In this document: positions 4,625 to 55,729 of the stretch, one piece after another | How positions within the stretch are numbered: position 1 is the stretch's first letter | Layout: each line of letters begins with the position of its first letter | From: Adhaeribacter swui | GTDB lineage: Bacteria > Bacteroidota > Bacteroidia > Cytophagales > Hymenobacteraceae | Length of the DNA: 64,000 nt | Assembly: GCF_014217805.1 (NCBI RefSeq) | Contig: NZ_CP055156.1 | Location: 1,802,585-1,866,584 of the forward strand | Direction of reading: 5' to 3' | The notes under the pieces: generated by a model | What the model was told of the DNA's origin: nothing | The model's input: the letters and a program-made list of their open reading frames with translations, nothing else | Database searches by the model: none | Position numbers and translations under genes: made by a program

Positions 4625-4728
4625 TTATGGCGCGGAAGTTACTTCCGTGCCTTTCTAAATTCTTAAGATGGACTAGCGGTTTAATTGGAATAAGTATAAT
4701 AGTCACGGAAGTAACTTCCGCGCCATAG
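4625..4728. repeat. pair of inverted 25-bp perfect palindromes (ATGGCGCGGAAGTTACTTCCGTG / rc) flanking 54 bp
   Basis: ttatggcgcggaagttacttccgtg at 4625-4649 and cacggaagtaacttccgcgccatag at 4704-4728. The same palindrome occurs at 888-912 and 55911-55935. Confidence 0.8.
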
Positions 4729-4786
4729 TTTTTAAGTATGCCATGCTTATCAAGGATAATTTGAGGCTTTTAATCAACTTAACATT

Positions 4787-20773: not shown

Positions 20774-22678
20774 TCAATCTTTATCGGTTTTACCTTTTAC
20801 CTCCGTTACGGGGCTATCCAGCAACTGCGTCGTTTTTACTAAACGAATAAATTCGGCGCGGTAGCCTTCGCTGTCATTACCTTTAGCATTTTCCGCGAGA
20901 TGAAGCACGCCAGCGTAAGTAGCTTGCCCTTTATGTTCGGAGTCGCGGAGCAGCATGCCAAATGCGGCAACGGCTGCCGCAAAGCGCAAGTTCTCCGAAG
21001 GGTTAGCGGTTAGCGTAGGGTATACTACGTGTTCGAGTAACTGGCTAGTATTACTTGTAGGTTTTTTGTAGCGCAACTTTAGGGTTAGCAGTTCGCCAGA
21101 GAAGTTGTTTTTATCCGCGTTTTTAACGGGTTGGTATTTAAGTGGATCAGCCTCCGCTACGTTCTTTTTACTAGTGGCCGGCACAATTTCGTAGAGCGCC
21201 GTTACGGTGTGGCCGGCGCCTAAATCGCCGGCGTCTTTCTTGTCATTTTTAAAATCTTCGTCGGCTAGCTGCCGGTTTTCGTAGCCAATTAAGCGGTAGG
21301 CTTTTACGTGGGTTGGGTTAAACTCGAGTTGTAGTTTTACATCTTTGGCGATGGTAAATAAAGTACCGCCAAATTCATTCACAAAAACTTTCTTCGCTTC
21401 TTGGATATTATCCACGTAGGCGTAGTTGCCATTTCCTTTGTCGGCTAGTTTTTCCATGCGGCTGTCTTTGATGTTGCCGGTACCAAAACCCAGCACTGTT
21501 AAAAATACGCCGCTTTCTCGTTTTTCTTCTATGAGCCTTTCCAGCTCCGATGTGCTGGATACGCCCACGTTAAAGTCGCCGTCGGTAGCCAGTATTACCC
21601 GGTTATTGCCATTTTTTAAAAAATTCTCCTGTGCCACGTTGTAGGCCAGTTTTATGCCTTCACCGCCCGCCGTTGAACCACCGGCTTGCAGCCGGTCTAA
21701 TGCCGCTAGAATTACTTCTTTTTGGTTTCCTGCGGTTGGTGGCAGTACCAAACCCGCTGATCCGGCATAAACCGTTATGGCTACTTTATCTTGCGGCCGC
21801 AATTGGTTTACCAGTAACTTAAATCCGGCAATTACCAAAGGTAATTTATCCGGCGAATCCATCGAACCCGACACATCAATCAGGAAAACCAGGTTAGCCG
21901 GTGGTAAATTACCCGTAGCAATGTTCTTGCCTTGTAAGGCAATATGCAGTAGTTGATTATCCTGGTTCCAGGGGCAAGCCGCCAGTTCAGTTATTACGGC
22001 AAACGGATCTTCGGGTGTGGGTTGCGGATAATTGTATTTAAAATAATTGACCATTTCTTCTATGCGCACGGCATCTTTGGGAGGTTTTTGACCATTATTT
22101 AAAAAACGGCGCACGTTGCTGTACGAAGCCGCATCTACGTCAATGGAAAACGTAGAAAGCGGGTGACGCTTGGTAGCTAAAAAATTGTTGTCTTCAATGC
22201 GGTCGTATTCTTCGGTATTAAAACGTGGCTGGGAATAATAATCAATGGGCATACTCATCCGGCGGGTTTCACGGGAAACATTTCCTCTTATTCGAACGCC
22301 GCTTACTACTCCGGCTACTTTCCCGGCTAAACTTTGCACGTTGCTATAACCCGTTACCACTACTTCCTCCAATGCCTGATTATTGGGCTGTAGAGCTACT
22401 TTTATCGTATTAGCCGCATTCAGTTTTACTTCTTGAGTAGTAAAGCCTATATAATTAAAAACCAGGGTTTGGGTAGTATGGGGCACTTCCAACTTAAATT
22501 TTCCTGAAGTGTCTGTAACCGTACCAATGGAAGTACCTTTAGCCGTAACCGTAACTCCGGGCAAAGGTTGAAGGGTAGCGGCATCGGTAACTTGTCCGGA
22601 AACTATCCGGGTTTGGGCTAAATTGGAAAAAGCCGTTAGAAAAAAGAAAAGAACGAGTAAGTAGCAGTAGTTTTTCAT
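20774..22678 (-). CDS. von Willebrand factor A domain protein with N-terminal CarboxypepD_reg-like domain (YfbK-like)
   Basis: Signal peptide; CarboxypepD_reg-like GQVTDAATLQPLPGVTVTAKG..DTSGKFKL; vWA MIDAS LVFLIDVSGSMDSPDKLPL. Confidence 0.8.
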   Translation of the reverse strand: MKNYCYLLVLFFFLTAFSNLAQTRIVSGQVTDAATLQPLPGVTVTAKGTSIGTVTDTSGKFKLEVPHTTQTLVFNYIGFTTQEVKLNAANTIKVALQPNNQALEEVVVTGYSNVQSLAGKVAGVVSGVRIRGNVSRETRRMSMPIDYYSQPRFNTEEYDRIEDNNFLATKRHPLSTFSIDVDAASYSNVRRFLNNGQKPPKDAVRIEEMVNYFKYNYPQPTPEDPFAVITELAACPWNQDNQLLHIALQGKNIATGNLPPANLVFLIDVSGSMDSPDKLPLVIAGFKLLVNQLRPQDKVAITVYAGSAGLVLPPTAGNQKEVILAALDRLQAGGSTAGGEGIKLAYNVAQENFLKNGNNRVILATDGDFNVGVSSTSELERLIEEKRESGVFLTVLGFGTGNIKDSRMEKLADKGNGNYAYVDNIQEAKKVFVNEFGGTLFTIAKDVKLQLEFNPTHVKAYRLIGYENRQLADEDFKNDKKDAGDLGAGHTVTALYEIVPATSKKNVAEADPLKYQPVKNADKNNFSGELLTLKLRYKKPTSNTSQLLEHVVYPTLTANPSENLRFAAAVAAFGMLLRDSEHKGQATYAGVLHLAENAKGNDSEGYRAEFIRLVKTTQLLDSPVTEVKGKTDKD

Positions 22679-25442: not shown

Positions 25443-28400
25443 TTAAAAATCAGCGGCTGCTACTTTATCCTGACTAAATTGGCCGAGTACTTCTTTAATG
25501 CCGCTTAAACCAGCCGCGATACTTTCCATTTGCGCCAGTACCTGCCCCACCTGGTTGTCTGCACCAAAAGTTTTTAATTTTAAGTTACGGCTAAAGGTTT
25601 CTTTAATGGCTTCCCAGCGTTGTAATTCTGCAGCATTAGCAAATCCGGTAAGTTCTTTAAACTTTAATAAGTTAGCTTCCGCGCCGGTGGCTAGGGTTTG
25701 TGCTTCGGCTTCGTAGTGCGCTAAAATCAAGGTTTCCAGTTCCTGGTCGTTCATCACCGGATTTACTTTTTCGGCCAGCTTGTTCATGTTGCGGTAAGAG
25801 CCTTGCAGTTTAAACGCCGGCTCGGTGCGGTACTCTTCGGCCTGTGCAGCCGAATAGATGTACGCGGTATTTACCCTTAGAATGACATCCCGGATTCTGA
25901 GTAACTTTTGAAATACTCTCACTAATTCGTTTATTTCTTCGGCAGCGTAATTGCCTTCCAGTTCTAAGCTTTCCTTTTCGCCGGTTTCGGCTACCCGGAT
26001 TAAGGTATATATATCTTGCTGGCTTTTGCTGGTGAGTTGGGCCAATGTAACGTTAGAGGTAAGGGCATTTTCCAGGTAACTCAATTTAAAAACTGCTTCG
26101 GTATCGCCGATGATGTCGCCTAAGTTGTAAATATCGGCCCGGTTCGCGAGCATGTCGGGTATCCGGAATTTTTCGCCGGTTTCGGTGTACGGGTTACCAG
26201 CCATAACCACGCATACTTTTTTACCCCGAAAATCGTAGGTTTTGGTTTTACCTTTGTACGTGCCTTCAATTTTGCGTTGGGCATCGCATAACGAAATAAA
26301 CTTTTGCAAGAATTCCGGATTACAATGCTGAATATCGTCCAGGTAAATCATGACGTTATCGCCCATCTCGAAAGCTAAGTTCAGCTTGCCTAATTCTTCG
26401 CGGGCTGCGGCATTCGGCGCTTCGCTGGGGTCTAAAGAAGTAACCTGGTGGCCAATGGCGGGGCCGTTAATTTTCATAAAAATCACGCCCAACCGGTTGG
26501 CAATGTACTCCATCAGTGTGGTTTTACCGTAACCCGGCGGCGAGAGCAGCAATAACATTCCCATCAGGTCGGTGCGTTTAGTATCGCCGGCCGTACCCAT
26601 TTGTTTCGCTAAGTTGGCGCCGATTAAAGGCAAATAAACCTGATCAATTAATTTGTTCCGCACAAACGAGGATAACACCCGGGGCTTAAATTCTGATAAG
26701 CGCAATTCTTCGGCAAAGGCCTGGGTTAAGCCTCTTTTTAGCTCGTTGAATTGTGTAAACCGGGGTGCTACCGTAGTGGCGTAGCTGGTTAATTTTTCCT
26801 GAAACGCGTGAAAATCTAGACGGTATTGCTGCTTTTGAACCAATGGGTGCGCGCCCTGCATACTCGTTACAATCTCGGTTAAAGCCGCGTGATGCACGCG
26901 TTGCAAATTAAAATCATGGGTAAACAAAAGTACTGCGGCTTCTGCTACATAATCGGGGTTAAAGCTACTACCAGCCTGCTGTAAAAAGGCTTTCAGCCAA
27001 TGCTGAATTAACTTAAACTGCTGTACCGGGTTGTTAGCAAAAGCTGCTACAGAAGTATCGTATGTACTTATAACTTTTTTATCTGTTAAATATTGCTGAA
27101 AACCCTGGTACAAGGCCGCAGCCTGGTCCGAGATAATAAAATGGTTCGGGCGAATTAATTCGTAAAACAAGTACTCGCCCGCCTTTTCACTGTTAGCGTT
27201 AGCGCACAACCCGGTTTCGTTTACAAACGCCTGGATACCTAGTTGCAATTCCTGAATAACAGCTTCGAACTGCCGGGTTTCGGGGAAAACCTGTAAAATA
27301 GCGCTTATTCCTTGTAACTGGTTGGTTAGTATTTCTTTCTGATCTTCGGCGATAAAAGCTTTCCAGAATAACTGCGTTGCTGCCCGGTCCAGGGGAGCGT
27401 AGCGCAACAGATCGGCGGTTTTTAAAAATCGAACCAGCACCGTTAACAACTGAGTTGCGTCCTGGTCGTGCACCCCTTTAATGTACCCTTCGTTGAAGCG
27501 CGCCGCCATAAATTTTTGCGTGTACTCCAACAGTTCGGCAGCGGTCAGCTTATGCAAATCATTCACCGACAAATAAGCGAAACCTTCGCTTGAAGCAAAG
27601 TCCGAGGCGCTTTGAGCAGCCTGCAAAATTTGAAAAGCCAGGTACTCGGCCCGGTACACCGTATTATTTTCGGATACCAGCGTTTGTTCCCAAATTGGCT
27701 GATAACTCAAAAAATGCGGGTCGGTTATTTTTTCAAAAAAGTTGGTGCCGGTAAGGTGGTAATACATGGCGTTGTCGCGCAGTACTACGCTTAAATCCAG
27801 CGGTTGGGTATTTACCGTAAAAGCATGCGGCCCAAATTGAATGATGTTCGAACCCACCACAAAAAGCTCGTTTTTGTCTTTTAGCTGCCTTACCGTGTCT
27901 TCTTTTAAGGCTTTTAAACGGCTTTGGATCGTATCGGCTTTCACGGTGTCGCCGATGTGCAATAACTCCACCACGGTATTCCGGACTTTTTCCACCATTA
28001 AATCCGCGGCAAAATACCCGTTTATATCGTTTACCGTGGTAAGTTTGGCTACCCGACCCTGCATGGCTTTTAAAATACGCTCAGCCGTTTGTTGCAGGTT
28101 AGTAGCACGTTTGTTTTGAGCTTCCTGTAAGGCGGCTTTTCTGGATTCAAAAGCGCTGTAAATTTCCTCGCGCTTGTGGCTAATCTGGTCGGTAAACTCG
28201 TCGAAATCCGTGAACTTGCCTTCCAGTTCTTCCAACTGCACCATTACTTTGGCCAGGTATTCTTCGCATTTAGCCGGCGTATCGCAAACATCCAGGTAAT
28301 TAATAACGCTTTGGCTGATAAGCTTGATCTGGGAGTTAAATTCGGCTTTGCCTTCCTGGCTTACTAGTTCTAAACGCTTGCGTTTTAAACCGGCTTTGGT

Positions 28401-30392
28401 TTGATTGAAAGTGGCGTAAATAGCCGAAATAGTATCTACAATCCTAGTGGTTTGGGTGGCGTCTTCTACTTTTAAATTACTGACCACATCAAGGAGCATC
28501 TCCAGCTCACCGGCTATGGCCGCAATGCTTTTCTCGGTAGCATCCGCTTCTACTACTTTCTCAATTTTTTGAATATCAGCTTGGATGTTCCGGATGCGTT
28601 GCTCGTAAGGTGTAAGGGCATCGGGTTGCAGCAGGAAAGTAATGCTGGCATTGGCGGTTTGCTGGGTATATTCCTGTATTTGTTGTTCGTAAGTGTCGAT
28701 TAAAGCCAGGTCAGCGTAGCGCAAATCTTTTAACGAGATCATTTCGCCACGCACCGAACGCAGTTCCGCCAGGTACTTCACGAAATCCAGAATAGCCGTG
28801 GGCTTCTGAATTTTTAAATTTTTAATTAAATCCTCAGCTTTTGCAATTACCTTGGTTACCTGCTCGCGGGTGCTTTTTTTAATGCGCAGTACCTTTTCGT
28901 ATTCTTCTACCGCCGCCGTAGCGCTTTGCCGGATTGCGCTGATGGGTTCCGCCAGGTTATAAGTTTCCGTACGATTCAGCCAGTGGTAAGTATCCAGCAA
29001 ATCGGTGCTCAGCTTGATTAAATCGAGGTATAAATTCCCGTACGAATCTTCTTTTTGTAACAAGGTCAACACCTCGGTGCTTTCGGCCATGGCCCGCACA
29101 ATATCTTTGTTGCCTACTTTATACAGGTAAGAATCCAGGGTTACGGGTATGGCGTAATTGCTGCCAATATAAGGCGTTTGCCAGATTTGGATAGCGTGGT
29201 GTTTTTTGGCTTCGGCATCGGCTTTAAAATAACATAACTCGCCATTTTCAAAAATTGCGTAGCCGTGGCAAACAATCGGGTTTTCTATTTTCTGCGTGAT
29301 TACATTGTACGATAGCAGCAAGTACACGCCGTTGGCTTTGTTGTAAAAGACGAACAGATAATCTTCGCCGTTGGGCGAGGCAATCCGTTTTTCAAAAAGC
29401 ATATCCGCCAAGCCATTGTCAAATTCTTTAAACTCGCCGGTTTGCAGATAATAGCCGTACGCGTAAATAATGCCTTGATTTTCCGGAAGCAGCACGCAGC
29501 AGTTTTCGAGGGCATCGATGCGGCGCACTTCGCGCAACTTCGCGTTAAAAACCAGGTAGCGATACTTGATCTCTTTGTAAGGCCGTATTTTTAAAATTAT
29601 AATGTTGCCGATAATGGCGTAGTAGATTTCCGAATCATCCAGCGTTTGGTCTTTGTCCTCCACGGGTTCGGCGTAAATACCCAAGCCAGTTTCCGTGTTA
29701 TCTTCTACTTTTATGGTGAGGTCGCCGTGGGTGGTTTCTACAAATACTTTGTCTTCGATGGAAACGTGCGGGAACTTGCCTTTGCGTTGGGCTTCCCGTA
29801 CGGTGCGCTTCCAGGCAAAATCATGCTGGTTCGGGAATACAAATTCGTGATCGCTACGATTGTCCACGTAAGTCAGGGAGTTTTCCTTGATCAGCCACTT
29901 AAACGTTTTAATATCGTTTACGCCTTTGCCAATCCGGAACACCATGTACAGGTGCGTACCCATTACCGCAAATTTTACGAACTGGGTGTTCTTGTAATAA
30001 CGATACAGTTTTTTAAAATCATCCAGAAATACCGCGTCCGAAAGTAACGTTAAGGTCTGCTGCTGAAAAGTCCGGTTCTGGTAATTGTAAATACTAAATA
30101 CATCCGCCAGTTCTATCTCCGCTTTTAATCCCAGATGCACGTTATAGCCAAAAATAAAAGAATTTCCCACGGGCACCATGTCCCAAGGAATGCAATTATT
30201 ATCGGTAGTTACGCGTTCCGTAGCCAGCAAAGTGGTAGCGATAGCACCAAAAACCTGCTTGCGTTCCTGGTTTAACTGATTTAAGCGATTACGTAAATCT
30301 TGTCCGCTTTTTTGCAGCCGGCCCCTTAGTATGTCGTAAGTACCGCCTTCTAATTGTACATTTTGGGCAGCTGGTGTATTGTTTTCGGCCAT
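25443..30392 (-). CDS. giant (1649 aa) coiled-coil-rich protein with C-terminal classical AAA+ ATPase module; function unknown
   Basis: Walker A LLLSPPGYGKTTLM (GPPGTGKT-like); Walker B VMIYLDDIQH ~60 aa later; sensor-1 region VCVVMAGNPYTE; ~1200 aa N-terminal region rich in heptad-like coiled-coil stretches. Confidence 0.8.
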   Translation of the reverse strand: MAENNTPAAQNVQLEGGTYDILRGRLQKSGQDLRNRLNQLNQERKQVFGAIATTLLATERVTTDNNCIPWDMVPVGNSFIFGYNVHLGLKAEIELADVFSIYNYQNRTFQQQTLTLLSDAVFLDDFKKLYRYYKNTQFVKFAVMGTHLYMVFRIGKGVNDIKTFKWLIKENSLTYVDNRSDHEFVFPNQHDFAWKRTVREAQRKGKFPHVSIEDKVFVETTHGDLTIKVEDNTETGLGIYAEPVEDKDQTLDDSEIYYAIIGNIIILKIRPYKEIKYRYLVFNAKLREVRRIDALENCCVLLPENQGIIYAYGYYLQTGEFKEFDNGLADMLFEKRIASPNGEDYLFVFYNKANGVYLLLSYNVITQKIENPIVCHGYAIFENGELCYFKADAEAKKHHAIQIWQTPYIGSNYAIPVTLDSYLYKVGNKDIVRAMAESTEVLTLLQKEDSYGNLYLDLIKLSTDLLDTYHWLNRTETYNLAEPISAIRQSATAAVEEYEKVLRIKKSTREQVTKVIAKAEDLIKNLKIQKPTAILDFVKYLAELRSVRGEMISLKDLRYADLALIDTYEQQIQEYTQQTANASITFLLQPDALTPYEQRIRNIQADIQKIEKVVEADATEKSIAAIAGELEMLLDVVSNLKVEDATQTTRIVDTISAIYATFNQTKAGLKRKRLELVSQEGKAEFNSQIKLISQSVINYLDVCDTPAKCEEYLAKVMVQLEELEGKFTDFDEFTDQISHKREEIYSAFESRKAALQEAQNKRATNLQQTAERILKAMQGRVAKLTTVNDINGYFAADLMVEKVRNTVVELLHIGDTVKADTIQSRLKALKEDTVRQLKDKNELFVVGSNIIQFGPHAFTVNTQPLDLSVVLRDNAMYYHLTGTNFFEKITDPHFLSYQPIWEQTLVSENNTVYRAEYLAFQILQAAQSASDFASSEGFAYLSVNDLHKLTAAELLEYTQKFMAARFNEGYIKGVHDQDATQLLTVLVRFLKTADLLRYAPLDRAATQLFWKAFIAEDQKEILTNQLQGISAILQVFPETRQFEAVIQELQLGIQAFVNETGLCANANSEKAGEYLFYELIRPNHFIISDQAAALYQGFQQYLTDKKVISTYDTSVAAFANNPVQQFKLIQHWLKAFLQQAGSSFNPDYVAEAAVLLFTHDFNLQRVHHAALTEIVTSMQGAHPLVQKQQYRLDFHAFQEKLTSYATTVAPRFTQFNELKRGLTQAFAEELRLSEFKPRVLSSFVRNKLIDQVYLPLIGANLAKQMGTAGDTKRTDLMGMLLLLSPPGYGKTTLMEYIANRLGVIFMKINGPAIGHQVTSLDPSEAPNAAAREELGKLNLAFEMGDNVMIYLDDIQHCNPEFLQKFISLCDAQRKIEGTYKGKTKTYDFRGKKVCVVMAGNPYTETGEKFRIPDMLANRADIYNLGDIIGDTEAVFKLSYLENALTSNVTLAQLTSKSQQDIYTLIRVAETGEKESLELEGNYAAEEINELVRVFQKLLRIRDVILRVNTAYIYSAAQAEEYRTEPAFKLQGSYRNMNKLAEKVNPVMNDQELETLILAHYEAEAQTLATGAEANLLKFKELTGFANAAELQRWEAIKETFSRNLKLKTFGADNQVGQVLAQMESIAAGLSGIKEVLGQFSQDKVAAADF

Positions 30393-30441
30393 AAGCGGCA
30401 GTAAACTAAAGTAATTTATGATTGAATGTTAAACGGCATTA

Positions 30442-30861
30442 TTACCCCCATTTGGTTCGGAGCAATTCCAGGTTGTTATCCAGCAAAGCCTTAATAGCTA
30501 GCAGGGCATCGTACTTGGTTTGGTTGGTTCGGCCAGTGAAGTATTTTTCGTTCAGTTTTTGAAAAAGTCCGAAGAAGTATTTTTTAATTTTTGGGCGTTT
30601 ATAGAAGATGTAAAACTCATAATCTTCTACATCGCCCACAATCGAAATACTCACGCCATGTTTGTTATAGGTATTTTCTATTTCCAGAGAAGGCGAAAAG
30701 TAAATTTTATCGCCTTTGGTCTCGGCTACGTTTACTTCGTTTAGCAGTTTCAGCCAGGGCACTTCGTTGAAAATATAAAAATAATCCTTGCGCTCCATAA
30801 TGGTTAGTTCCACGGCCTCGGGCTCGCAGGGCTTGCAAATACTATATCTGAAAGAAGACAT
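30442..30861 (-). CDS. hypothetical soluble protein (139 aa) in flotillin/AAA+ operon
   Basis: Same-strand ORF with 49-bp and 52-bp gaps to its neighbours; no TM or known motif. Confidence 0.55.
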   Translation of the reverse strand: MSSFRYSICKPCEPEAVELTIMERKDYFYIFNEVPWLKLLNEVNVAETKGDKIYFSPSLEIENTYNKHGVSISIVGDVEDYEFYIFYKRPKIKKYFFGLFQKLNEKYFTGRTNQTKYDALLAIKALLDNNLELLRTKWG

Positions 30862-30913
30862 AAAATTAAAAAATAGGGATTAGCTGCGCTTGGCAGACGC
30901 AGCTAACCCATTT

Positions 30914-33088
30914 TTAAACTAATTCCATACTTCTAACTAGTTTATCCGAGATGCCCATGGAAGTGGCAGTTTGCGTGAGTTCCTTCAGCAAACCGGTGGT
31001 GTTTTCGTCGGCGCTCTTCTGAATCATTTTCAGTAATAAAGCCGAGACACTCAGGTTGCGCACATCTTCTGACTTCATCCCGAACTGATTTAGGAAATAC
31101 TGCAGATTATCGCGGAACTGTACTTTACCGTTTCCGTTAGTATGGAAAAAAGTATCTTTCACAGTGCCCAAAACCTGGCTGTTATCCACTACCCGGTCCA
31201 CGGATTTACCTTTGGTAATCGAACCAATAATCTGGTCGAAGAACATAGTTTCGCCACCCACGATATCGATTTTGGCGGCTTTTAGAGCTTCGGCAATTAC
31301 TTCGGCCTGCGACGCAGCAATGTCTTTCTGTATGTTAATCTGCGCCAGTTCAATGGATTTATCTTTATCTAGGCGAAGTTTAAATTCTTCGTGGTCTTTG
31401 CCCACACCATCTAATTTGCGCATGGCTTCGGCTTTACTTTCAATGCCTTTGGCATCTACGGTAAATTTCTCGCTGTTTACGCGGGCTTCGGCTAGGCCTT
31501 TTTTCTCTTCGGCAATGGCTAAGTTCTCAATTACGTCGGCATCTGCTAAGCCTTTTTCTTTGGCTACTTTGGCAGCTATTAAGCCTACCTTTTCGTCTGC
31601 TTCGGCCTGCGCCTCGGCTTTTACTTTGGTGGCTTTGGCGGCCGCTACGGCTTGGCGTTCGGTTACTACCGCTTCCGCTTCTCCTTCTTTCTGGCGGGCC
31701 AAGGCTTTGGCTTCCATAACCTGGGCTTCGGATAAACCAAGGGCGGCAGCCTGGGTAGCTTCGGCTTCGGCCATTACTTTTAATGCCTGGGCACGGTTAG
31801 CCGCAGAAGCTTGCTGCGCTTCCGAATCAATGAGTAATTGTTTAGCTCGGAACTCGGCGGCCTGGCGGGCGGCTTCGGCGCCTTTAATTTCTTTCACTAA
31901 GGCGGCTTGCGCTACTTGCTCGGCGTTGGTAATGGCAACGGCTTTAACTCGCTCGGCTTCAGCAAAGGCGCGGGTATCTTTAATTTTTTCTTCTTCTTCG
32001 ACTACCGCTTTTTCTACGGTAACCCGCTCCCGGATAATACCCTGAATGTTTTTACGCTCTTCTTCAATGGCTTTTTCTTTTTCAATCTGAGCCAAGGCTA
32101 CAATGCGTTCTTTTTCGTTGGCTTCGAGTAAACGGGCCTGTTCTACGCGTTCAGTTTCCACGGCATCGGTGCGTTGTTTGCTGCGCTCGGCTACTAAAAT
32201 CTGGCGGTCGCGGTTTTGTTCGGCAATTTTTAATTCTTCGTCGGTGGCAATCTTAGCTTTTTCGGCTTTCAGGCGTTCTTCCTGACGTACTTTTTCGGCT
32301 TCGGCAAATTCCCTGGCTTTAATATTGGCAATCTCGCGACGTTGTTTTTCTTCGTTTTCGGCGAGCTGGCGTTCCAGTTCCAGAATGGTTTCCTGCGCTT
32401 CTACGTTTTGTTTTTTAATCGTTTTTTCTTTTTCGCGCTCAATTAAGTTCGATTGTATTTTCTGGCGGGCGGTTAAGTCAATAATTTTTTTAATTCCTTC
32501 GGCATCCAGAATGTTGTTTTCGTTGAGGTTAGTTAGTGGGGTTTGCTCCAGGTAATCAATAGCGCAGTCGTCGAGTACGTAGCCGTTTAAATCGGTGCCG
32601 ATGGTTTGTAAAATCTGGCGTTTAAAGTCGTCGCGGCTTTGGTATAAATCCACAAAATCGAAATGCTTGCCTACGGTTTTTAAAGCTTCGGAGAACTTGG
32701 CATCGAACAAACCTTCCAGGGCGGTATGGTCCGAAGCGCGTTTACAACCAATGGCTTGCGCTACTTGCACCACGTCTTCGGGCGTTTTATTTACCCGTAA
32801 AAAGAAGTTTACTTTAATGTCGGCCCGGAGATTGTCTTTACAAATCAAGCCTTCGGGCCCGGTGCGGGAAATAACGATGGTTTTTAAGGTGATATCCATT
32901 ACCTCTAATTTGTGGATAATGGGTACCACAAAAATGCCGGAGAAGGAAACTTTAGTATCGCCTAAACCCGTCCGGACCATGGCTTCGCCTTGAATGGCTT
33001 TTTGGTACATGCGGATAACAATGGCGATAAAACCAAAAAGTACAACCGCCAGAATAGCAAGAATAGACCAGGATAATTGTGCAATCAT
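30914..33088 (-). CDS. flotillin family / SPFH (band 7) domain protein, YqiK-like, with long coiled-coil tail
   Basis: N-terminal TM; SPFH core (GEAMVRTGLGDTKVSF...VISRTGPEGLICKDNLRADIKVNFFLRV); ~400 aa Ala/Glu/Lys-rich coiled-coil. Confidence 0.85.
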   Translation of the reverse strand: MIAQLSWSILAILAVVLFGFIAIVIRMYQKAIQGEAMVRTGLGDTKVSFSGIFVVPIIHKLEVMDITLKTIVISRTGPEGLICKDNLRADIKVNFFLRVNKTPEDVVQVAQAIGCKRASDHTALEGLFDAKFSEALKTVGKHFDFVDLYQSRDDFKRQILQTIGTDLNGYVLDDCAIDYLEQTPLTNLNENNILDAEGIKKIIDLTARQKIQSNLIEREKEKTIKKQNVEAQETILELERQLAENEEKQRREIANIKAREFAEAEKVRQEERLKAEKAKIATDEELKIAEQNRDRQILVAERSKQRTDAVETERVEQARLLEANEKERIVALAQIEKEKAIEEERKNIQGIIRERVTVEKAVVEEEEKIKDTRAFAEAERVKAVAITNAEQVAQAALVKEIKGAEAARQAAEFRAKQLLIDSEAQQASAANRAQALKVMAEAEATQAAALGLSEAQVMEAKALARQKEGEAEAVVTERQAVAAAKATKVKAEAQAEADEKVGLIAAKVAKEKGLADADVIENLAIAEEKKGLAEARVNSEKFTVDAKGIESKAEAMRKLDGVGKDHEEFKLRLDKDKSIELAQINIQKDIAASQAEVIAEALKAAKIDIVGGETMFFDQIIGSITKGKSVDRVVDNSQVLGTVKDTFFHTNGNGKVQFRDNLQYFLNQFGMKSEDVRNLSVSALLLKMIQKSADENTTGLLKELTQTATSMGISDKLVRSMELV

Positions 33089-33160
33089 GTTTTAGAAAGT
33101 AATTGTAGAAATGCTTTTTAAATTTTGAGAATTGAGTAAGTCTGTTTTTTAAAAATTTTA

Positions 33161-33781
33161 CTAGCTAGCAAGACTTTGGTAAGGCTCTATGAGGTAGAAT
33201 TGCTTGGCCGCGTTGTAATCAATAATTAACCCGGTTTCACCTTTTTTAAGGTAAGCCCCCGATGTAGCTTTCACATTCAGGAGCAGCAGCGATCCGGTGG
33301 TCCGGACGGTAGCCTGCCCCATTTCGGTGGCGGTAACGGGCAAAGTAACCGTGCAAACCCGTCCAATAACCGAGGCTTTGGAATCATGCTCTTTTTCGAG
33401 GGCGGCAAATATTTTAACAAACGGATAGGTTAATACTTTGGAAGCAAGCAGGCTGAAGATGAAAAGGGGTATTAGCAGCACAAAGCCAACCAAACTTTCG
33501 CCGGTATTTAAATAATAGTTAAGGAGTATAGATGCGGCCCAAAAAGGCAAAGCCACAAAACTGAAAAAGATCATGAATGGGATTTTGCCCACGTTAAAGA
33601 AGCCCAAAGCATGATTTAACCAGACGATCGCGTCGGAGCTATCCATTTCCAGATCCATGTCCAGCATGTCTAAATCCAGAATACCCAGGATTACCACTGC
33701 CCAATAAAGCAGGGCAAATAGCAAAAGGATGCTAGGAATGATGTTGACGCTGGCACTAGCCGCCTGTAAAAACTCCGACAT
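33161..33781 (-). CDS. NfeD-like / YqiJ-like membrane protein (DUF1449-like) with C-terminal OB-fold
   Basis: Multi-TM N-terminus, C-terminal soluble beta-rich segment; gene order with flotillin mirrors E. coli yqiJ-yqiK. Confidence 0.65.
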   Translation of the reverse strand: MSEFLQAASASVNIIPSILLLFALLYWAVVILGILDLDMLDMDLEMDSSDAIVWLNHALGFFNVGKIPFMIFFSFVALPFWAASILLNYYLNTGESLVGFVLLIPLFIFSLLASKVLTYPFVKIFAALEKEHDSKASVIGRVCTVTLPVTATEMGQATVRTTGSLLLLNVKATSGAYLKKGETGLIIDYNAAKQFYLIEPYQSLAS

Positions 33782-34029
33782 AAAGGTATTTAATATACAC
33801 GATTGTAAATATATTAAATAACTAATATAAAATAAAATAAGTTTCTGATTTTTGCTTTATATTTAAAGAGAAATAGAGCTGGGTGGCACCAGATTATTTG
33901 ATTCTTCATAAAAGAAGAGTTAAAGGCTTTATTGACGATCAGAAAGTTAATTTTTTTAAATTTTTGTAATTCTGGAATCTGTAATCAGAGACTCTATTTT
34001 AGCCTAACATATCAACAATTGTTATTAGT

Positions 34030-34497
34030 ATGTCGCTTTTCAGCAAATCCGAGAAAGTAACGCAGGCAGTATATTTTAGTCCGGGAACGGAGTGCTTAGA
34101 TGCCATACTGGAGCAAATAGAGGCGGCGCGTACGTCGCTCAAAATATGTGTATTTACCATTAGCGACGACCGGATTACCCGGGCTATTTTACAGGCGCAC
34201 CGCCGCGGCATTAAAGTAAAAATTGTGACCGATAACGAAAAGCTTTACGACCAAGGTTCAGATATCCGGCAATTAGCGCAAGCGGGCATTCCGGTACGGA
34301 TAGATAATACGCCCAATCACATGCACCACAAGTTTGCCATTGTAGATAACACGGTAGTGGTAACTGGCTCCTACAACTGGACCCGCAGTGCTGCCCTGTA
34401 TAATCATGAAAATATTGTACTAACCTCGGCTAAACCAATTGTAGCCGGGTTCTGTGAAGAGTTTGATCGCTTGTGGGCAGAGATGGAGGCATTGTAA
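34030..34497 (+). CDS. phospholipase D-family (HKD) Nuc-like endonuclease, cytoplasmic
   Basis: Single HKD motif HMHHKFAIVDN...GSYNWT; size (155 aa) and layout like Nuc/PLD-nucleases; no signal peptide. Confidence 0.8.
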   Translation: MSLFSKSEKVTQAVYFSPGTECLDAILEQIEAARTSLKICVFTISDDRITRAILQAHRRGIKVKIVTDNEKLYDQGSDIRQLAQAGIPVRIDNTPNHMHHKFAIVDNTVVVTGSYNWTRSAALYNHENIVLTSAKPIVAGFCEEFDRLWAEMEAL

Positions 34498-36959: not shown

Positions 36960-39900
36960 ATGAAATACCTTTTAGCTTCCCTTATCCGGGAAAATACTTT
37001 CGGAGGAAGCTTCTTGCCACATTGGTTGATTAATAACCGATTTAATACCTTTTTCACGCCCCGATTAGTACCAATCCGAGTAGTTGCAGTATTGCTTTTA
37101 TTATTTACCGCTATGCAAGCCCAGGCTCAAGAAGTTTTGTTAGGACTCACGTCGGATTATGGTCCGCAAGGTGGCGGCACGGCCTTTTCTATTAAAACCA
37201 ATGGGAATGATTTTGCTGTTCATAAAACTTTTACCAAACTAGGTTCAAACCCGGGCGGCGAGCTGATTCAGGGCAAAGATGGTAACTTTTACGGGATGAC
37301 TGCCCGGGGAGGTGCCAGTGATTTCGGAACCATTTTTAGAATGACGCCGGCTGGTACAATTACTATTATGCATCATTTTGCCGGTTTCGATGGCAATGCG
37401 CCGGGTAGTAATAATCTTATACAAGCTGCCGACGGTAACTTTTACGGTATGACCTCTTCTGGCGGTATGAATAATAATGGAGCGGAACCTGGCATTGCTT
37501 TTAGAATAACTCCTGGCGGGGAGTATAAGGTAATTTACAACTTTACGCGTAATGAAGGTTACCGTCCTTACGGCGATTTACTGCAAGGCCCGGATGGCAA
37601 CTTTTACGGCATGACGTATTATGGCGGTACTTTTGATAAAGGTACGGTTTTTAAATTAACGCCATCAGGCACCTATACCGTATTGCATCATTTTAATGGT
37701 ACGTCCCGGGGTGGCTGGCCTACCGGCAATTTAGTGCTAGGAAACGATGGCAATTATTACGGCGTTACTACCAGTGCTGGCGCCAACCAGTTAGGTACTA
37801 TTTTTAAAATAACCACCGCTGGCACTTTTACTTTGTTACATACTTTTGAATTAGCTACTGGTGGTACTCCGGTGGGTAGCTTGGTAAAGGGTAAAGACGG
37901 GAACTTCTATGGCGTAACTACCGCGGGCGGCGATAATTATAGCGGTACTATTTTCCGAATAACGGCCAATGGCGATTACAAAGTACTGCACCATTACGGC
38001 TTCGATGCCATAGGAAATACTCCAAAAAGAAGTTTGATTTTGGGAAAAGATGGAAACCTGTACGGTACCACCATGAACGGCGGAGACTGGTTTAATGGAA
38101 CCATTTACAAAGTAACGCCGAGTGGTATTGTAAGTGCTTTACATGCCTTTTCACCTTCGGAGGATGGTGGCCGGGCAAGCGGTCTAATGCAAGCTGCTGA
38201 TGGTTATTTATACGGTATGAACGAAATTGGCGGGCCTCAAGGTGATGGTGTTATCTATCGTATTTTACCCAATGGTACCAATTTTAAAAAATTAGTAGAT
38301 CTGCCCGGTTCTTTTGGCGGAGTAGCTCCCCGGGGTGGGTTGGTACAAGGCCCCGATGGCTTTTTCTACGGCATGACCGAATGGGGCGGTGAGTATAATC
38401 ACGGTACTATTTTTAGGTTGTGCTCCGATGGCTCTTATAAAATCTTACGGTCACTGGATGATGTAAACGATGGAGGATATCCCCGGGGTGACTTGCTGCT
38501 GGGGAAAGACGGCAATCTTTACGGTTTAACCAGCCATGGTGGAGTTAATGGCAGTGGTACGTATTTCCGGATAACACCCCAAGGTAATTTTACGGTCTTG
38601 TATTCCTTCCAAAACGACGATACCGGCTACTCGCCCTGGGGAACTTTACTGGATGGCAACGATGGTTATTATTATGGCATGACCAATGCCGGAGGCGAGT
38701 TATTATCCGGCGTTATCTTTCGGGTTACCCCCACTGGTGATTATACCGTATTACACAGCTTTGATAATTATGAGGATGGTTCTTCGCCCCAAGGTAATTT
38801 AATTAAAGGTAAAGACGGTAATTTTTACGGCCTTACCAACGTAGGCGGCGATTACAATACCGGTACTTTTTTTAAAATGGCACCCGATGGCACCGTTACC
38901 AAACTGCATTCTTTCTACCAGTTCGAAGATGGCGATAAACCATCTGGTAGTCTGGTGCAAGGCAAAGACGGTAATTTTTACGGGATGGCTGCCCGGGGAG
39001 GTAAGAATGGGCATGGTACTATTTTCCGTTTTACACCAACCGGAAAAATAACCGTTCTGAAGTTTATGACGGATGAAATCTCGGATGGTGCTAACCCCCA
39101 TGGTAGTCTGGTAATGGATAAGGAAGGCAATTTTTATGGTTTAACCTGGGGTGGTGGGCATAACTTTAGCGGTGTTATTTTTAAAATTACGCCCAAAGGG
39201 AATTATACCGTTCTGCACCATTTAGATGGACCCAAAGAAGGCAGAAGCGCTTTCGGTAGTTTAATTTTCCAGAAGGCTAATCCAACGGCATACGCGCAGC
39301 GTGTTACCACAGCCGTGAACACGGCTAAAGTTATTACCCTAAAAGGAACTGGTGGTAGTCCGCTGGTCTACGAAATTATATCCCAACCAAAGAATGGTAC
39401 CCTAAGTGGTTCCGGCGCCAAACGTACCTACACGCCTAAATCTGATTTTAGTGGTACAGATAGCTTTACTTACCGGGTAAACTGGGGCTGCCAAAGTTCT
39501 ACGGTTGCAACCATTACCATTCAGGTAGGTACCCCGGTTGCCACTGCTATCCGGATTAATGCCGGTGGAAATGCTTTAACTACCACGCAAGGTAACTTTA
39601 GCGCCGATGCTTATTTTACCGGGGCAACTACTGTTTCTACTACGGCTGCTACCATTGCCAATACCGCTGATCCTGGCCTATACCAGGATAACCGTCGGGC
39701 GAGTGCAAACAACGGCAGCTTCCAGTATGCTATTCCGGTAACCAACGGGCAGTACACCGTAAAGCTGCATTTTGCCGAAACTTTCCATACTACTGCCGGA
39801 AAACGCCAATTTAACGTTACCGCTGAAGGGAGTAGTTGGCTCAACAATTATGATATCTACGTCGCTGCCGGAGGTGCCCGCCAAGCCATAGTAGCTACCC

Positions 39901-40286
39901 GCAATGTAACGGTAAGCGATGGAACCCTAGATTTAAACTTCATTTCCAAGGTAGATAAAGCTTGTGTATCCGCGATTGAAGTATTACCCGCTTCCGGAAC
40001 CGAACAAATTGAAGCAGCTACGCCAACAAAAGAAGAGACAGGTTTGGTAACTCGCTTATATCCTAATCCGGTTACTGACCAATTTACCGTAGAACTAAAA
40101 GTACCCGCCGAGCAAGTTAGTTTCTCGATTATAGATGCTTCAGGGATAACCGTAAAAACTCATATTTCAACCCGGGCCCAAGCTGATAAACTGGAGTTCC
40201 TGGTGGACCAACTGCAACCAGGCTTGTATACTTTGCTGGTACATGCCAATAACAATCAGCAGGTTTTGCGTTTTTTAAAAAATTAG
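36960..40286 (+). CDS. T9SS-secreted repeat protein: GloVer-like ~50-aa tandem repeats, Ig-like domain, malectin-like domain, Por C-terminal sorting domain
   Basis: ~14 repeats of GxDGNFYGMT..GG..xGTIF(R/K)xTPxG; Ig-like domain near aa 780-860; malectin-like IRINAGG...YTVKLHFAE; C-terminal LYPNPVTDQFTVELK...VLRFLKN T9SS type A signal. Start codon uncertain because of a long pre-signal extension. Confidence 0.75.
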   Translation: MKYLLASLIRENTFGGSFLPHWLINNRFNTFFTPRLVPIRVVAVLLLLFTAMQAQAQEVLLGLTSDYGPQGGGTAFSIKTNGNDFAVHKTFTKLGSNPGGELIQGKDGNFYGMTARGGASDFGTIFRMTPAGTITIMHHFAGFDGNAPGSNNLIQAADGNFYGMTSSGGMNNNGAEPGIAFRITPGGEYKVIYNFTRNEGYRPYGDLLQGPDGNFYGMTYYGGTFDKGTVFKLTPSGTYTVLHHFNGTSRGGWPTGNLVLGNDGNYYGVTTSAGANQLGTIFKITTAGTFTLLHTFELATGGTPVGSLVKGKDGNFYGVTTAGGDNYSGTIFRITANGDYKVLHHYGFDAIGNTPKRSLILGKDGNLYGTTMNGGDWFNGTIYKVTPSGIVSALHAFSPSEDGGRASGLMQAADGYLYGMNEIGGPQGDGVIYRILPNGTNFKKLVDLPGSFGGVAPRGGLVQGPDGFFYGMTEWGGEYNHGTIFRLCSDGSYKILRSLDDVNDGGYPRGDLLLGKDGNLYGLTSHGGVNGSGTYFRITPQGNFTVLYSFQNDDTGYSPWGTLLDGNDGYYYGMTNAGGELLSGVIFRVTPTGDYTVLHSFDNYEDGSSPQGNLIKGKDGNFYGLTNVGGDYNTGTFFKMAPDGTVTKLHSFYQFEDGDKPSGSLVQGKDGNFYGMAARGGKNGHGTIFRFTPTGKITVLKFMTDEISDGANPHGSLVMDKEGNFYGLTWGGGHNFSGVIFKITPKGNYTVLHHLDGPKEGRSAFGSLIFQKANPTAYAQRVTTAVNTAKVITLKGTGGSPLVYEIISQPKNGTLSGSGAKRTYTPKSDFSGTDSFTYRVNWGCQSSTVATITIQVGTPVATAIRINAGGNALTTTQGNFSADAYFTGATTVSTTAATIANTADPGLYQDNRRASANNGSFQYAIPVTNGQYTVKLHFAETFHTTAGKRQFNVTAEGSSWLNNYDIYVAAGGARQAIVATRNVTVSDGTLDLNFISKVDKACVSAIEVLPASGTEQIEAATPTKEETGLVTRLYPNPVTDQFTVELKVPAEQVSFSIIDASGITVKTHISTRAQADKLEFLVDQLQPGLYTLLVHANNNQQVLRFLKN

Positions 40287-40360: not shown

Positions 40361-40460
40361 AATTTTTGTTAGTAAAGTTACTCCCGATGAAACACCCTAG
40401 TAGCGTAAATATGTCACATTCATGCTACTAAGTAGAGCAAGTAGCTACTGGCAACTGACA

Positions 40461-40580
40461 CCAGTTTGGCTATTGAGGGCCTTCTAAGGTTCCGGTGCGC
40501 AGCATTCCGCAGCGGAGCGAGGAAAGGAAGCTTAGACCAGCCCGAAAGAGCCAAACGAGGCCCGCCGGCCACGAGGCAAA
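40461..40580 (-). repeat. family A intergenic repeat, copy 3 (reverse, 5'-truncated)
   Basis: rc matches the 3' two-thirds of 55353-55503, including tctaagcttcctttcctcgctccgctgcggaat. Confidence 0.8.
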
Positions 40581-42540: not shown

Positions 42541-43884
42541 CTATAACTGGTATTCCTGAATTTTCCGGTAAAGCGTGGTTAAACCAATGTGCAGCAGACG
42601 AGCCGTTTCAGTTTTATTGCCGTGGGTTTGTTGCAGGATTTTAGCAATATGATTGCGTTCCACGGTACTCAGGGCAGTTTCGCTGATTTCAGAAGCTGGT
42701 AGCGGCGTGAACTGCTGAAACTCCGGGGGCAACAAGGGGAGAGTTAGCGTATCACTATCGGCCAGAATAACGGCGCGTTCTATCACATTTTTTAATTCGC
42801 GGATGTTGCCCTGCCAGGGATATTCCTGCAGCTTTTGCAGAAAAGCCGCATCCATTTTGTTAATACGTCGGGTTAGTTTAGCCGCGTAGCGGTTCATGAA
42901 AAAAGTAGCAATGTCCGGAATATCGGCTTTCCGGTCGCGGAGTGGGGGTACTGTAATTTTAAAACTAGACAGGCGGTAGTATAAATCCAGGCGAAAATGC
43001 CCGGCTTCGGCTTCTTGTTGCAGGTTCCGGTTAGTGGCCGCGATAATGCGCACATTTACTTGCACCGGCTTGGTATCGCCGATCTTGGTAAAAGTCTGGG
43101 ATTCCAGTACCCGCAGAAACTTCGCCTGCAATTCTAAAGGCAGTTAGCCGATTTCGTCTAAAAACAATGTGCCCCCGTGGGCTTCTTCAAACAAGCCTTT
43201 TTTATCGGTGAGCGCACCGGAAAAAGCGCCTTTGCGGTAGCCAAATATTTCGGATTCGAGTAAATCTTTCGGGAAAGCGCTGCAGTTTACCGCCACAAAG
43301 GGTTTTGTATTACGGCTACTGCCGCCATGGATGGCCTGGGCAAATAATTCTTTCCCGGAGCCGGTTTCGCCCTCTAATAAAACCGTGGAATTGGTAGGCG
43401 CTACCCGGCCGGCCAGGTCTTTAGCTTGTTTAATGGCCGCCGAATGCCCCAAAATGGCCTCAAAACTGTATTGTCGGCTCACCTGCTTTTCCAGCTCTAA
43501 TACGCGTTGCTGCAAAGCGGCTTTTTCCATGGCTCGGCTAACCAGCGGAATAATTTTATCGTTATCGTCGCCTTTAATTAAATAATCAAAAGCCCCGTTT
43601 TTCATGGCAGTTACCCCATCTGCAATAGTACCATACGCGGTGAGTACAATAATTTCGATGGCTGGGTAAAGTGCTTTTATTTTGGCGGTAAGTTCTATGC
43701 CGTTGCTATCCGGCAGTTTTACGTCGCTGAGGACCAATTGAATGGGTTCTTTTTCGAGTAAACGCAAACCGGCTTTGCCCGTGGGAGCTTCAAAAACCTG
43801 GTAGCCTTCTAAGCCAATAATGCGGGCCAGTAAACCGCGCAGCTTATCTTCGTCGTCGATAATTAATATATTTCCGTTGGTCAT
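42541..43884 (-). pseudogene. sigma-54-dependent Fis-family response regulator (NtrC-like) interrupted by an in-frame TAA
   Basis: 43144..43884 encodes REC + start of sigma-54 AAA domain (GETGSGKE Walker A, GAFSGA motif) ending ...[11 protein letters not shown]. The same frame continues LPLELQAKFLRVLESQ... (42541..43143) through the Fis HTH. The TAA occupies the position of the conserved Glu in DEIGELPLELQ, so it is a GAA-to-TAA change. Confidence 0.75.
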
Positions 43885-55352: not shown

Positions 55353-55503
55353 GTTCCATCTTGATTGAACGGGCTGAGTTTGCCTCATGGCCGGCGGGCC
55401 TCGTTTGACTCTTTCGGGCTGTCTAAGCTTCCTTTCCTCGCTCCGCTGCGGAATTCTGCTACGCAGAACCAGAACCTTAGAAGGTCCTCAATAGCCGAAC
55501 TGG
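55353..55503 (+). repeat. family A intergenic repeat, copy 4
   Basis: 5' arm identical to copy 1; middle identical to copy 3. Confidence 0.85.
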
Positions 55504-55729
55504 CGTCTTTGCTTTTAGCTCCGGCTTTTCTGATCAAAAAGAAAGAACGAACCTTCCTATATTGCTGCGAATTAAGATATTGCTCTTAAAACCTTTTAAT
55601 TTATTCCGTCATTCAGGAGAAATCTATTTGGCTTCGTAGTAAAATAGGTTCCTCCTGAATGACATCGGAAATAGTATTTTTAAATTTTTTAAATTTTGCC
55701 AATTAACGATGCAACAAGTAGCATTAGTC

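Follow-up and report, generated by a model that had tools for sequence, protein, structure and literature searches.

The pairing of an SPFH2 flotillin with an NfeD-like protein is a class treated by Hinderhofer et al. 2009 (PMC2636767). A larger gene system that includes such a pair was described by Ravi et al. 2024 (mSystems, PMC11237479, section 19), in which a CesT/Tir-PspA dyad is joined by a YqiJ/YuaF protein, a band-7/flotillin protein and a beta-propeller AAA+ ATPase, with an optional HKD hydrolase in some Proteobacteria and with 'abbreviated operons' that are without PspA; its interpretation in terms of envelope stress is a prediction from comparative genomics. According to a 2025 review of ESCRT-III-like systems in bacteria (PMC7619361), an ATPase that would serve PspA as Vps4 does seems to be missing from bacteria, and what the band-7 partners do is still to be determined. 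Here, we analyse a five-gene locus from Adhaeribacter swui, contained in a stretch of 64,000 nucleotides (nt) of contig NZ_CP055156.1 (hereafter the window), which encodes a YqiJ-like membrane protein, a YqiK-type flotillin, a protein of 139 amino acids (aa) and an AAA+ ATPase of 1649 aa on the minus strand and, divergently, an enzyme of the phospholipase D (PLD) family.

We read this locus as a reduced copy of a PspA-associated YqiJ/YqiK-flotillin/DUF3686-AAA+ envelope module, an explanation that, taken with the mechanism proposed for it below, we hold to be slightly better than evenly probable. Most likely it serves to maintain the envelope in connection with flotillin and PspA, the ATPase acting as remodeller, by a mechanism that we infer. 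Since there is no CesT or PspA gene in the window, the locus fits the 'abbreviated operon' class of Ravi et al., with an HKD gene. The sequence-only reading, a first annotation of the window made without database searches, did not recognise the layout as a characterised system; it had already been published as a prediction (Ravi et al. 2024, PMC11237479), and the locus is a known layout in that sense and not new as a discovery. The terms DUF3686, YqiJ, PLDc and propeller were not found in the text of the supplement of that paper, and full-text literature searches returned no paper on DUF3686, nor on flotillin together with 'DNA repair ATPase'. In the literature on YqiK/YqiJ, flotillin, MoxR and NfeD we found no experimental study of the ATPase or the system. 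The value of the locus is therefore as a pointer to a predicted system and as a correction of a database name.

The evidence that carries this reading is gene linkage. Open reading frames (ORFs) were called in 83 loci with a homolog of the ATPase (numbered with the prefix L) and searched with profiles of the window proteins and of the PspA, CesT and helix-turn-helix (HTH)-S24 proteins of relatives; the 64 loci with at least 3.5 kb of sequence upstream of the ATPase gene were taken as informative. The linkage proposed in the sequence-only reading recurs in related genomes: flotillin lies directly upstream of the ATPase gene, on the same strand, in 61/64 informative loci, and a yqiJ homolog lies upstream of flotillin, again on the same strand, in 56 of the 64. 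The linked loci span Bacteroidota, Planctomycetota, Verrucomicrobiota, Desulfobacterota, Clostridia and Fibrobacterota, and the identities of ATPase and flotillin to the window proteins co-vary (r = 0.80). Across at least six phyla, the genes for YqiJ, flotillin and the ATPase have kept their order and been passed on as a set. An unbiased clustering of neighbouring ORFs gave a core of ATPase (83 loci), flotillin (70) and yqiJ (56), followed by a second tier of PspA (23 loci), an HTH_3/Peptidase_S24 regulator (21) and a CesT-like protein (21), with PLD in six. Conservation of the five-gene neighbourhood as a whole holds for the yqiJ-flotillin-ATPase core and not for the other two genes, the PLD gene being optional (7/83 loci by profile search) and the 139-aa gene variable.

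The usual form in Bacteroidota has CesT-PspA ahead of yqiJ and a divergent LexA/CI-like HTH/S24 repressor, and the ancestral form in that phylum is shown to be PLD-HTH/S24, divergent from CesT-PspA-yqiJ-flotillin-(cargo)-AAA+. PspA accompanies the system in 21-23 Bacteroidota loci and on the Pseudomonas plasmid pQBR103, in a single gene string that runs YjfI-PspA-...-YqiJ-SPFH-ATPase. The plasmid locus (L089; P. fluorescens SBW25 pQBR103, record 84437-97641) joins the triad to yjfI-pspA-rhomboid-DUF2491-DUF350-DUF1190-glutathionylspermidine-synthase, so that two PspA-linked modules stand in one row, and it has a separate 'phospholipase D family protein' 8.6 kb downstream of the triad.

Both membrane proteins are true homologs of the E. 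coli pair, as the sequence-only reading had proposed in calling them flotillin and NfeD/YqiJ-like. The 724-aa protein matches E. coli YqiK by BLASTP (E 8e-43, 30% identity over 452 aa) and by profile comparison (hhalign, probability 99.9%), and its homologs are named 'flotillin family protein/YqiK' in the source records. The 206-aa protein matches E. coli YqiJ end to end (BLASTP E 5e-6, 25% identity). Hydropathy scans place one transmembrane segment in the flotillin (residues 1-32), which continues into the SPFH domain and a long Ala/Glu-rich coiled coil, and about three N-terminal segments in the YqiJ-like protein, ahead of a soluble C-terminal domain; they found no transmembrane segment in the ATPase, the 139-aa protein or the PLD enzyme. 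Searches of Pfam, NCBIfam and PDB sequences gave nothing usable for the flotillin, the YqiJ-like protein or the 139-aa protein. The flotillin had no Pfam match, including Band_7 (PF01145) and Flotillin, even at E 10, the Pfam field is empty in 120 flotillin homologs, and for the YqiJ-like protein Pfam YqiJ_N reaches E 0.14 only. Since Pfam misses both proteins, their identity rests on the direct comparison with YqiK and YqiJ, and we regard the missing Band_7 match as a failure of sensitivity of the Pfam model that is overridden by the homology to YqiK seen at sequence level. Among the flotillin homologs, some Hymenobacter and Pontibacter genomes hold two paralogs on contigs of the same length (e.g., P0141/P0145, P0194/P0205 and P0182/P0188), which suggests tandem or nearby gene duplication.

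The ATPase is 100% identical to the A. swui protein annotated as 'DNA repair ATPase'. It is matched in Pfam by DUF3686 (PF12458; residues 32-470, E 1e-188), by DUF7902 (PF25472; residues 591-673, E 4e-27) and weakly by AAA/AAA_5 at 1280-1400 (AAA_5 E 2e-5). Two AlphaFold2 (AF2) models were made, of residues 1-1200 (mean predicted local distance difference test, pLDDT, 81) and 1150-1649 (pLDDT 78). The first begins with a long helix (16-48) and an all-beta domain (54-405); helical bundles (422-842) follow, and then a small beta domain (850-888) and a further helical domain (914-1160). In Foldseek searches of PDB the all-beta domain matches propellers of the WD40, Kelch and prolyl-oligopeptidase types with a probability of 1.0 (DCAF1 WDR TMt 0.42), the AAA+ module in the second model comes closest to the MoxR-type proteins NorQ and CbbQ (TMt 0.54-0.61), and the helical regions have no convincing structural match. 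From these models the protein, which is soluble, is predicted to be built of a propeller, helical arms and then a MoxR-like ring module. The sequence-only reading had called the protein about 75% coiled-coil-rich; the modelled propeller at 54-405 contradicts this, and of the part outside the AAA+ module only about 420-842 and 914-1160 are helical. Its question of a resemblance of the N-terminal region to dynamin, SMC, kinesin or dynein stalks found no support in the AF2 and Foldseek results. Matches of the 1-1200 model to dynein heavy chains, with TM at most 0.1 and a root-mean-square deviation above 45 A, were rejected as long-helix artefacts.

The catalytic motifs read from the sequence stand: Walker A (SPPGYGKT), the DD of Walker B (YLDD), the sensor-1 Asn (N1400) and also R1418 are present and do not vary among 29 diverse homologs, whose identity goes down to 30%. 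The label of a classical AAA+ module given with them does not, as the module is MoxR-like with a pre-sensor-1 beta-hairpin and NorQ and CbbQ are its best structures. A classical-clade AAA (FtsH/Cdc48/Vps4-like) was considered and ruled out by the pre-sensor-1 hairpin, by the DD of Walker B and by the pore-loop position 'GPAIGH'; sequence matches to Cdc48 and Rix7 span only about 45 residues at the P-loop. The coordinates of the genes and features are collected in Table 1.

Table 1. Positions in the window of the five genes, of motifs and predicted domains of the ATPase, and of non-coding features of the locus
Feature	Position (nt)	Strand	Basis
YqiJ/YuaF-type NfeD-like membrane protein, 206 aa	33161..33781	-	BLASTP vs E. 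coli YqiJ
YqiK-type flotillin (SPFH2), 724 aa	30914..33088	-	BLASTP and hhalign vs E. coli YqiK
Soluble protein, 139 aa, variable cargo	30442..30861	-	small Bacteroidota family, no Pfam domain
DUF3686/DUF7902/AAA+ ATPase, 1649 aa, soluble	25443..30392	-	Pfam
Single-HKD PLD-family enzyme, 155 aa, cytoplasmic, optional accessory	34030..34497	+	Pfam PLDc_2
ATPase: predicted long N-terminal helix, residues 16-48	30249-30347	-	AF2
ATPase: predicted beta-propeller domain, residues 54-405	29178..30233	-	AF2 (pLDDT mostly 75-90), Foldseek
ATPase: predicted helical bundles 422-842 (DUF7902 591-673), beta domain 850-888, helical domain 914-1160	26913..29129	-	AF2, Pfam
ATPase: predicted MoxR-like AAA+ module, residues ~1270-1470	25983..26585	-	AF2, Foldseek, motifs
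ATPase: Walker A SPPGYGKT, residues 1284-1291	26520-26543	-	motif
ATPase: Walker B IYLDD, residues 1349-1353 (DD 1352-1353)	26334-26348	-	motif
ATPase: predicted pre-sensor-1 beta-hairpin, residues 1374-1392	26217-26273	-	AF2
ATPase: sensor-1 Asn1400	26181-26201	-	motif
ATPase: Arg1418	26133-26159	-	motif
Terminator-like hairpin and U-run directly 3' of flotillin stop codon	30877..30909	-	fold
Hairpin and U-run 3' of ATPase stop codon	25367..25409	-	fold
AT-rich divergent spacer between yqiJ and PLD gene, 248 bp	33782..34029		

The ATPase family is large and widespread. More than 4301 proteins match the window ATPase at E <=1e-10; in a library reduced to clusters of 50% identity, matches number 955 at E <=1e-3 and 297 at <=1e-30. 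Full-length members are mostly 1600-1900 aa, and homologs occur in at least 588 species genomes and on 13 plasmid or secondary-replicon records (Pseudomonas, Proteus, Vibrio, Streptomyces, Deinococcus and others); no phage record carries one. The family is tied to flotillin and strongly conserved, the ATPase being 45-72% identical across phyla, and it is still labelled 'DNA repair ATPase'. This name (in Pfam and NCBI, 'ATPase involved in DNA repair' or 'DNA repair ATPase') opens another explanation, that of a DNA-repair ATPase under SOS-type control by the LexA/CI-like HTH-S24 protein that is divergent in Bacteroidota, with the HKD enzyme as nuclease. An HTH_3 plus Peptidase_S24 regulator is indeed divergent in 21 loci, and the P-loop region of the ATPase gives weak RuvB matches; those matches are confined to a stretch of about 45 residues around Walker A, however, and neither Pfam nor NCBIfam finds a DNA-binding or repair domain in the protein. 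Full-text literature searches traced no experimental basis for the name, and the invariant partners of the ATPase are two membrane proteins, with PspA and CesT in the second tier. We consider a role in DNA repair most unlikely, the least probable of the readings weighed here.

The PLD enzyme is the part of the locus that invites a reading as defence. The sequence-only description of a 155-aa single-HKD protein on the plus strand without signal peptide was borne out; hydropathy scanning found neither a signal peptide nor a transmembrane segment. Pfam assigns it to PLDc_2 (E 9e-34), and it carries the canonical HxK(x)4D...GSxN signature, with the HKD motif at residues 99-106 (nt 34324-34347). 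The label of nuclease that came with the description is less well founded, as the best solved relative is MitoPLD/Zucchini (E 1e-33), ahead of Nuc (1e-18) and NucT (6e-11), and the depositors' name for the MitoPLD structure is 'mitochondrial cardiolipin hydrolase'. Against the NCBIfam NucT equivalog the enzyme scores 59.5 bits where the cut-off is 297, and the cut-off of the DrmC equivalog is also far from reached. Both lipid-hydrolase and single-stranded RNA nuclease activities have been assigned to MitoPLD/Zucchini.

The system is accompanied by orthologs of the enzyme, at 46-66% identity, in L002, L006, L008, L017, L078 and L079 (63% in L088). Three arrangements are seen: the gene stands beside the HTH gene (L002, L006, L008 and L088), downstream next to PspA (L017) or, in the Verrucomicrobiota loci L078 and L079, downstream on the same strand. 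The recurrence in three arrangements argues for an association that is real but optional. The orthologs of L002, L078 and L079 (229-284 aa) have an N-terminal extension, helical and conserved, of about 75 residues, common to one Bacteroidota and two Verrucomicrobiota genomes and absent from the window enzyme. A membrane anchor as in MitoPLD was considered for these longer orthologs and rejected, the extension being soluble and helical with no transmembrane segment.

In an anti-phage or abortive-infection system, the complex of flotillin and ATPase would be the sensor of infection at the membrane, with the HKD enzyme as the effector that degrades nucleic acid. DISARM, Dpd and Mokosh-type systems use HKD nucleases in this way, and in PADLOC the PLD enzyme matches the DrmC, MkoC and DpdK models at domain level (E 4e-13 to 1e-6). 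Furthermore, the system is patchy, being lost in A. pallidiroseus and sometimes plasmid-borne, its partner PspA is named for phage shock, and a DUF4011-helicase/restriction endonuclease gene lies 9 kb away. However, the flotillin, YqiJ and 139-aa proteins are without match in PADLOC-DB 2.0, the ATPase reaches the mad8 model only marginally, through its P-loop (E 0.005), and the neighbourhood holds no DrmA/B, Dpd or Mko partner. With PLD in only 7/83 loci, most copies would be without the supposed effector. The identity of the ATPase across phyla is far above that of typical defence or arms-race proteins, no phage copies were found, and the enzyme is nearer to MitoPLD than to Nuc or NucT. The neighbours are housekeeping and envelope genes: VWA/YfbK, ECF sigma/anti-sigma, TonB_C, TM2, glyoxalase, M20 peptidase, a malectin protein of the type IX secretion system (T9SS) and aspartate kinase. 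The defence role raised in the sequence-only reading therefore finds no model match beyond domain level, no island context in the window and no phage copies, and we regard it as very unlikely.

Comparison within Adhaeribacter indicates how the window copy arose. A. terreus (L088) has the order PLD-HTH/S24, divergent from CesT-PspA-(DUF559)-yqiJ-flotillin-141 aa-ATPase, an arrangement also found in a close metagenomic relative and in Nibribacter. Searched against the window by tblastn, its PLD, flotillin and ATPase are found at 63%, 83% and 68% identity, and yqiJ and the small protein are found as well; no homolog or remnant of HTH-S24, CesT or PspA was detected within the 64-kb window by BLASTP or tblastn. 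It is the disappearance of HTH, CesT and PspA that leaves PLD directly divergent from yqiJ. A. pallidiroseus (L087), whose sequence runs colinear with the window (nucleotide identity about 86%), has only PLD and the 139-aa gene between the glyoxalase and TM2 genes, being without the 3.2 kb that carry yqiJ and flotillin and the 5.1 kb that carry the ATPase gene; no homolog of ATPase or flotillin from this species is among the close matches listed. With A. terreus full, the window reduced and A. pallidiroseus left with PLD and the small gene, the system is dispensable and is being lost stepwise in the genus. The series is a set of natural genotypes: A. terreus full, A. swui minus PspA, CesT and HTH, and A. 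pallidiroseus with PLD and the small gene.

The same comparison bears on the explanation that only yqiJ, flotillin and the ATPase are functional, with the PLD and 139-aa genes as unrelated neighbours brought alongside by accident of deletions. It is favoured by the persistence of both genes in A. pallidiroseus without the other three, by the presence of PLD with just 7/83 loci, by the unlinked 139-aa genes of two other genera and by the many unrelated genes that the flotillin-ATPase slot carries. For the PLD gene chance is hard to invoke, as Bacteroidota and Verrucomicrobiota have orthologs (46-66%) alongside the system in three different layouts, and Ravi et al. (PMC11237479) report an HKD hydrolase in the proteobacterial versions. 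Applied to both genes, we judge this explanation unlikely, if less so than a role in defence.

For the 139-aa gene, this explanation is accepted. Its family (116 matches, no Pfam domain) comes from Bacteroidota in all identifiable sources. A homolog occupies the flotillin-ATPase slot in L006 and in A. terreus (L088) and lies downstream of the ATPase gene in L008; the homologs of Chryseolinea (L004) and Flavobacterium (L005) have no link to flotillin. The flotillin-ATPase spacer has a median of 124 bp and reaches 3.7 kb, and in other genomes it holds genes unrelated to the 139-aa gene, namely DUF559 endonuclease-like, GxxExxY-type, lipoprotein and ABC/GPP34 genes. Since it is unlinked in two genera and unrelated genes take the same slot, we treat the gene as cargo and not as core, and the 'small unknown' is withdrawn from the membership that the sequence-only reading had given it. 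Small DUF559/MTES_1575-like endonuclease genes are seen in the flotillin-ATPase spacer of L010, L012 and L067 and at 5901-6329 of L088 (Hymenobacter and A. terreus); the spacers of the locus are landing sites for small, possibly selfish genes.

At the level of transcription, the ORF table of the window has all five ORFs at the coordinates and strands first read; the intergenic gaps on the minus strand are 72 bp (yqiJ/flotillin), 52 bp (flotillin/139-aa) and 49 bp (139-aa/ATPase), and the divergent spacer, first given as about 250 bp, measures 248 bp. The hairpin behind the flotillin gene, the best terminator-like site of the region, has a 13-bp GC-rich stem (7/13 pairs GC) with a minimum free energy of -22.3 kcal/mol (z -5.8), and 0/200 shuffles match it in fold energy. 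Because of this hairpin between the flotillin and 139-aa genes, one four-gene transcript is not assured, so that of the operon proposed earlier the flotillin-ATPase linkage is real (61/64 loci) and the single transcript is doubtful. It is plausible that attenuation predicted at this hairpin gives far more flotillin than ATPase. The hairpin behind the ATPase gene has an interrupted 14-pair stem, followed by UUUUUAUUUUUU, and the whole 109-nt spacer there folds with z -2.7; from its sequence it is likely the end of the transcription unit. In the divergent spacer, a block at about 33802-33867 is also kept in A. pallidiroseus (33802-33831 is a 30-nt match to L087 at 90% identity) and overlaps a promoter-like site, a sigma-70-like match at 33831..33802 on the minus strand of a kind whose matches overall are not above chance.

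The mechanism that we propose for the envelope module is as follows. Flotillin, with its one transmembrane anchor, and YqiJ would oligomerise into an SPFH cup or microdomain at the cytoplasmic face of the inner membrane, and the C-terminal AAA+ module of the soluble ATPase would assemble into a MoxR-like ring. The beta-propellers at the N-terminus, carried by the long helical arms, would bind either the flotillin assembly or polymers of PspA/ESCRT-III and their clients, and ATP hydrolysis would assemble, remodel or release membrane-bound scaffolds during envelope stress; analogues in function would be Vps4 with ESCRT-III, or a MoxR ATPase with its partner complex. As an optional add-on, the MitoPLD-like HKD enzyme may shift local lipids, e.g., from cardiolipin to phosphatidic acid, and the 139-aa gene would be a passenger. 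A SPFH protein of B. subtilis reportedly links PspA to the membrane (PMC8581546).

Several points weigh against this reading of the locus. There is no PspA, CesT or HTH gene within 64 kb, and a link to PspA would here have to act in trans. A. pallidiroseus keeps PLD without flotillin and ATPase, which argues that PLD can persist, and presumably function, alone. The strong hairpin may uncouple the transcription of flotillin and ATPase. MoxR ATPases normally act with a VWA partner, and clustering found no VWA family among the conserved neighbours of the 83 loci. With DD instead of DE in Walker B and no evident aromatic pore loop, threading or unfolding is doubtful. Finally, the mechanistic steps are all our own inferences, set beside gene identities, predicted folds, topology and linkage, which the analysis shows.

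A bolder version of the envelope reading, in which the DUF3686 ATPase is an ATP-driven remodeller of SPFH/flotillin cages and/or PspA polymers, a counterpart of Vps4 whose MoxR-type ring grips and reshapes a membrane-bound scaffold with six propeller-tipped helical arms, and PLD supplies fusogenic phosphatidic acid, is offered tentatively and is on balance improbable. If true, it would describe a bacterial membrane-repair or fusion machine. The DUF3686 family is an obvious candidate for the Vps4-like role that appears to be missing.

Some features of the window lie outside the locus. The DUF4011-helicase gene mentioned above (43911..48653, minus strand) encodes a 1580-aa protein with DUF4011, a superfamily 1 helicase (AAA_11/AAA_12), MTES_1575 and DUF3320, and is kept in A. 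pallidiroseus; it is possibly a nucleic-acid surveillance or defence gene unrelated to the locus. The VWA/YfbK gene at 20774..22678 was considered as a MoxR partner and set aside, as it is part of a sigma/anti-sigma cluster, does not recur with the ATPase in other loci and is kept by A. pallidiroseus, which has no ATPase. The segment 36444..40681, with the ORF 36960..40286 (plus strand) for a T9SS-secreted 1108-aa Malectin/Big_9/Por_Secre_tail protein, is absent from the colinear region of A. pallidiroseus, which indicates an insertion or deletion of about 4 kb. A sigma-54-dependent response regulator is split into the minus-strand ORFs 42541..43131 and 43144..43884, one with Response_reg and Sigma54_activat 1-103 and the other with Sigma54_activat 109-167, AAA_lid_14 and HTH_8; its A. 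pallidiroseus ortholog is a single intact gene of 447 aa, and the split is probably a frameshift, a nonsense mutation or a sequencing error. Repeats of about 30-100 nt at 889-917, 4625-4734, 40457-40530 and 55429-55935 match intergenic DNA of A. pallidiroseus (L087 3957-3993, 15328-15945 and 17307-17710), which suggests a dispersed intergenic repeat family.

Compared with known systems, the locus shares with HflK/C-FtsH and with prohibitin and the m-AAA protease the genetic or physical coupling of an SPFH scaffold to an AAA+ machine, an analogy already drawn in the sequence-only reading. FtsH, however, is membrane-anchored, of the classical clade and fused to a protease, whereas the window ATPase is soluble, MoxR-like and without a protease domain; the resemblance is one of analogy and not of homology. 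With the MoxR family (NorQ, CbbQ and RavA) the ATPase shares the pre-sensor-1 hairpin and the 'GNP...G...P..L.NR' sensor-1/Arg-finger region. A MoxR protein has about 260-500 aa and works together with a VWA/MIDAS partner, whereas the window ATPase adds about 1270 N-terminal residues (propeller and helical arms), has no conserved VWA neighbour and has DD in Walker B. MitoPLD/Zucchini (PLD6) and Nuc/NucT have the single-HKD PLD fold of about 150 residues in common with the window enzyme, which, unlike MitoPLD, is without an N-terminal membrane anchor. In E. coli yqiJK and B. subtilis yuaFG(floT), both proteins are homologous to those of the window and the order is the same, with the NfeD-like gene upstream of flotillin; E. 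coli yqiJK has no ATPase gene downstream, and the window flotillin is 170 residues longer and undetected by Pfam Band_7. In relation to the full form of Ravi et al., the window copy is without the CesT-PspA dyad and the divergent HTH/S24 regulator and has a lineage-specific 139-aa gene in the flotillin-ATPase slot, and PLD is found here in Bacteroidota and Verrucomicrobiota, where Ravi et al. have it in some Proteobacteria. What the window locus has in common with that system is the beta-propeller AAA+ ATPase, YqiJ, flotillin and the optional HKD/PLD enzyme.

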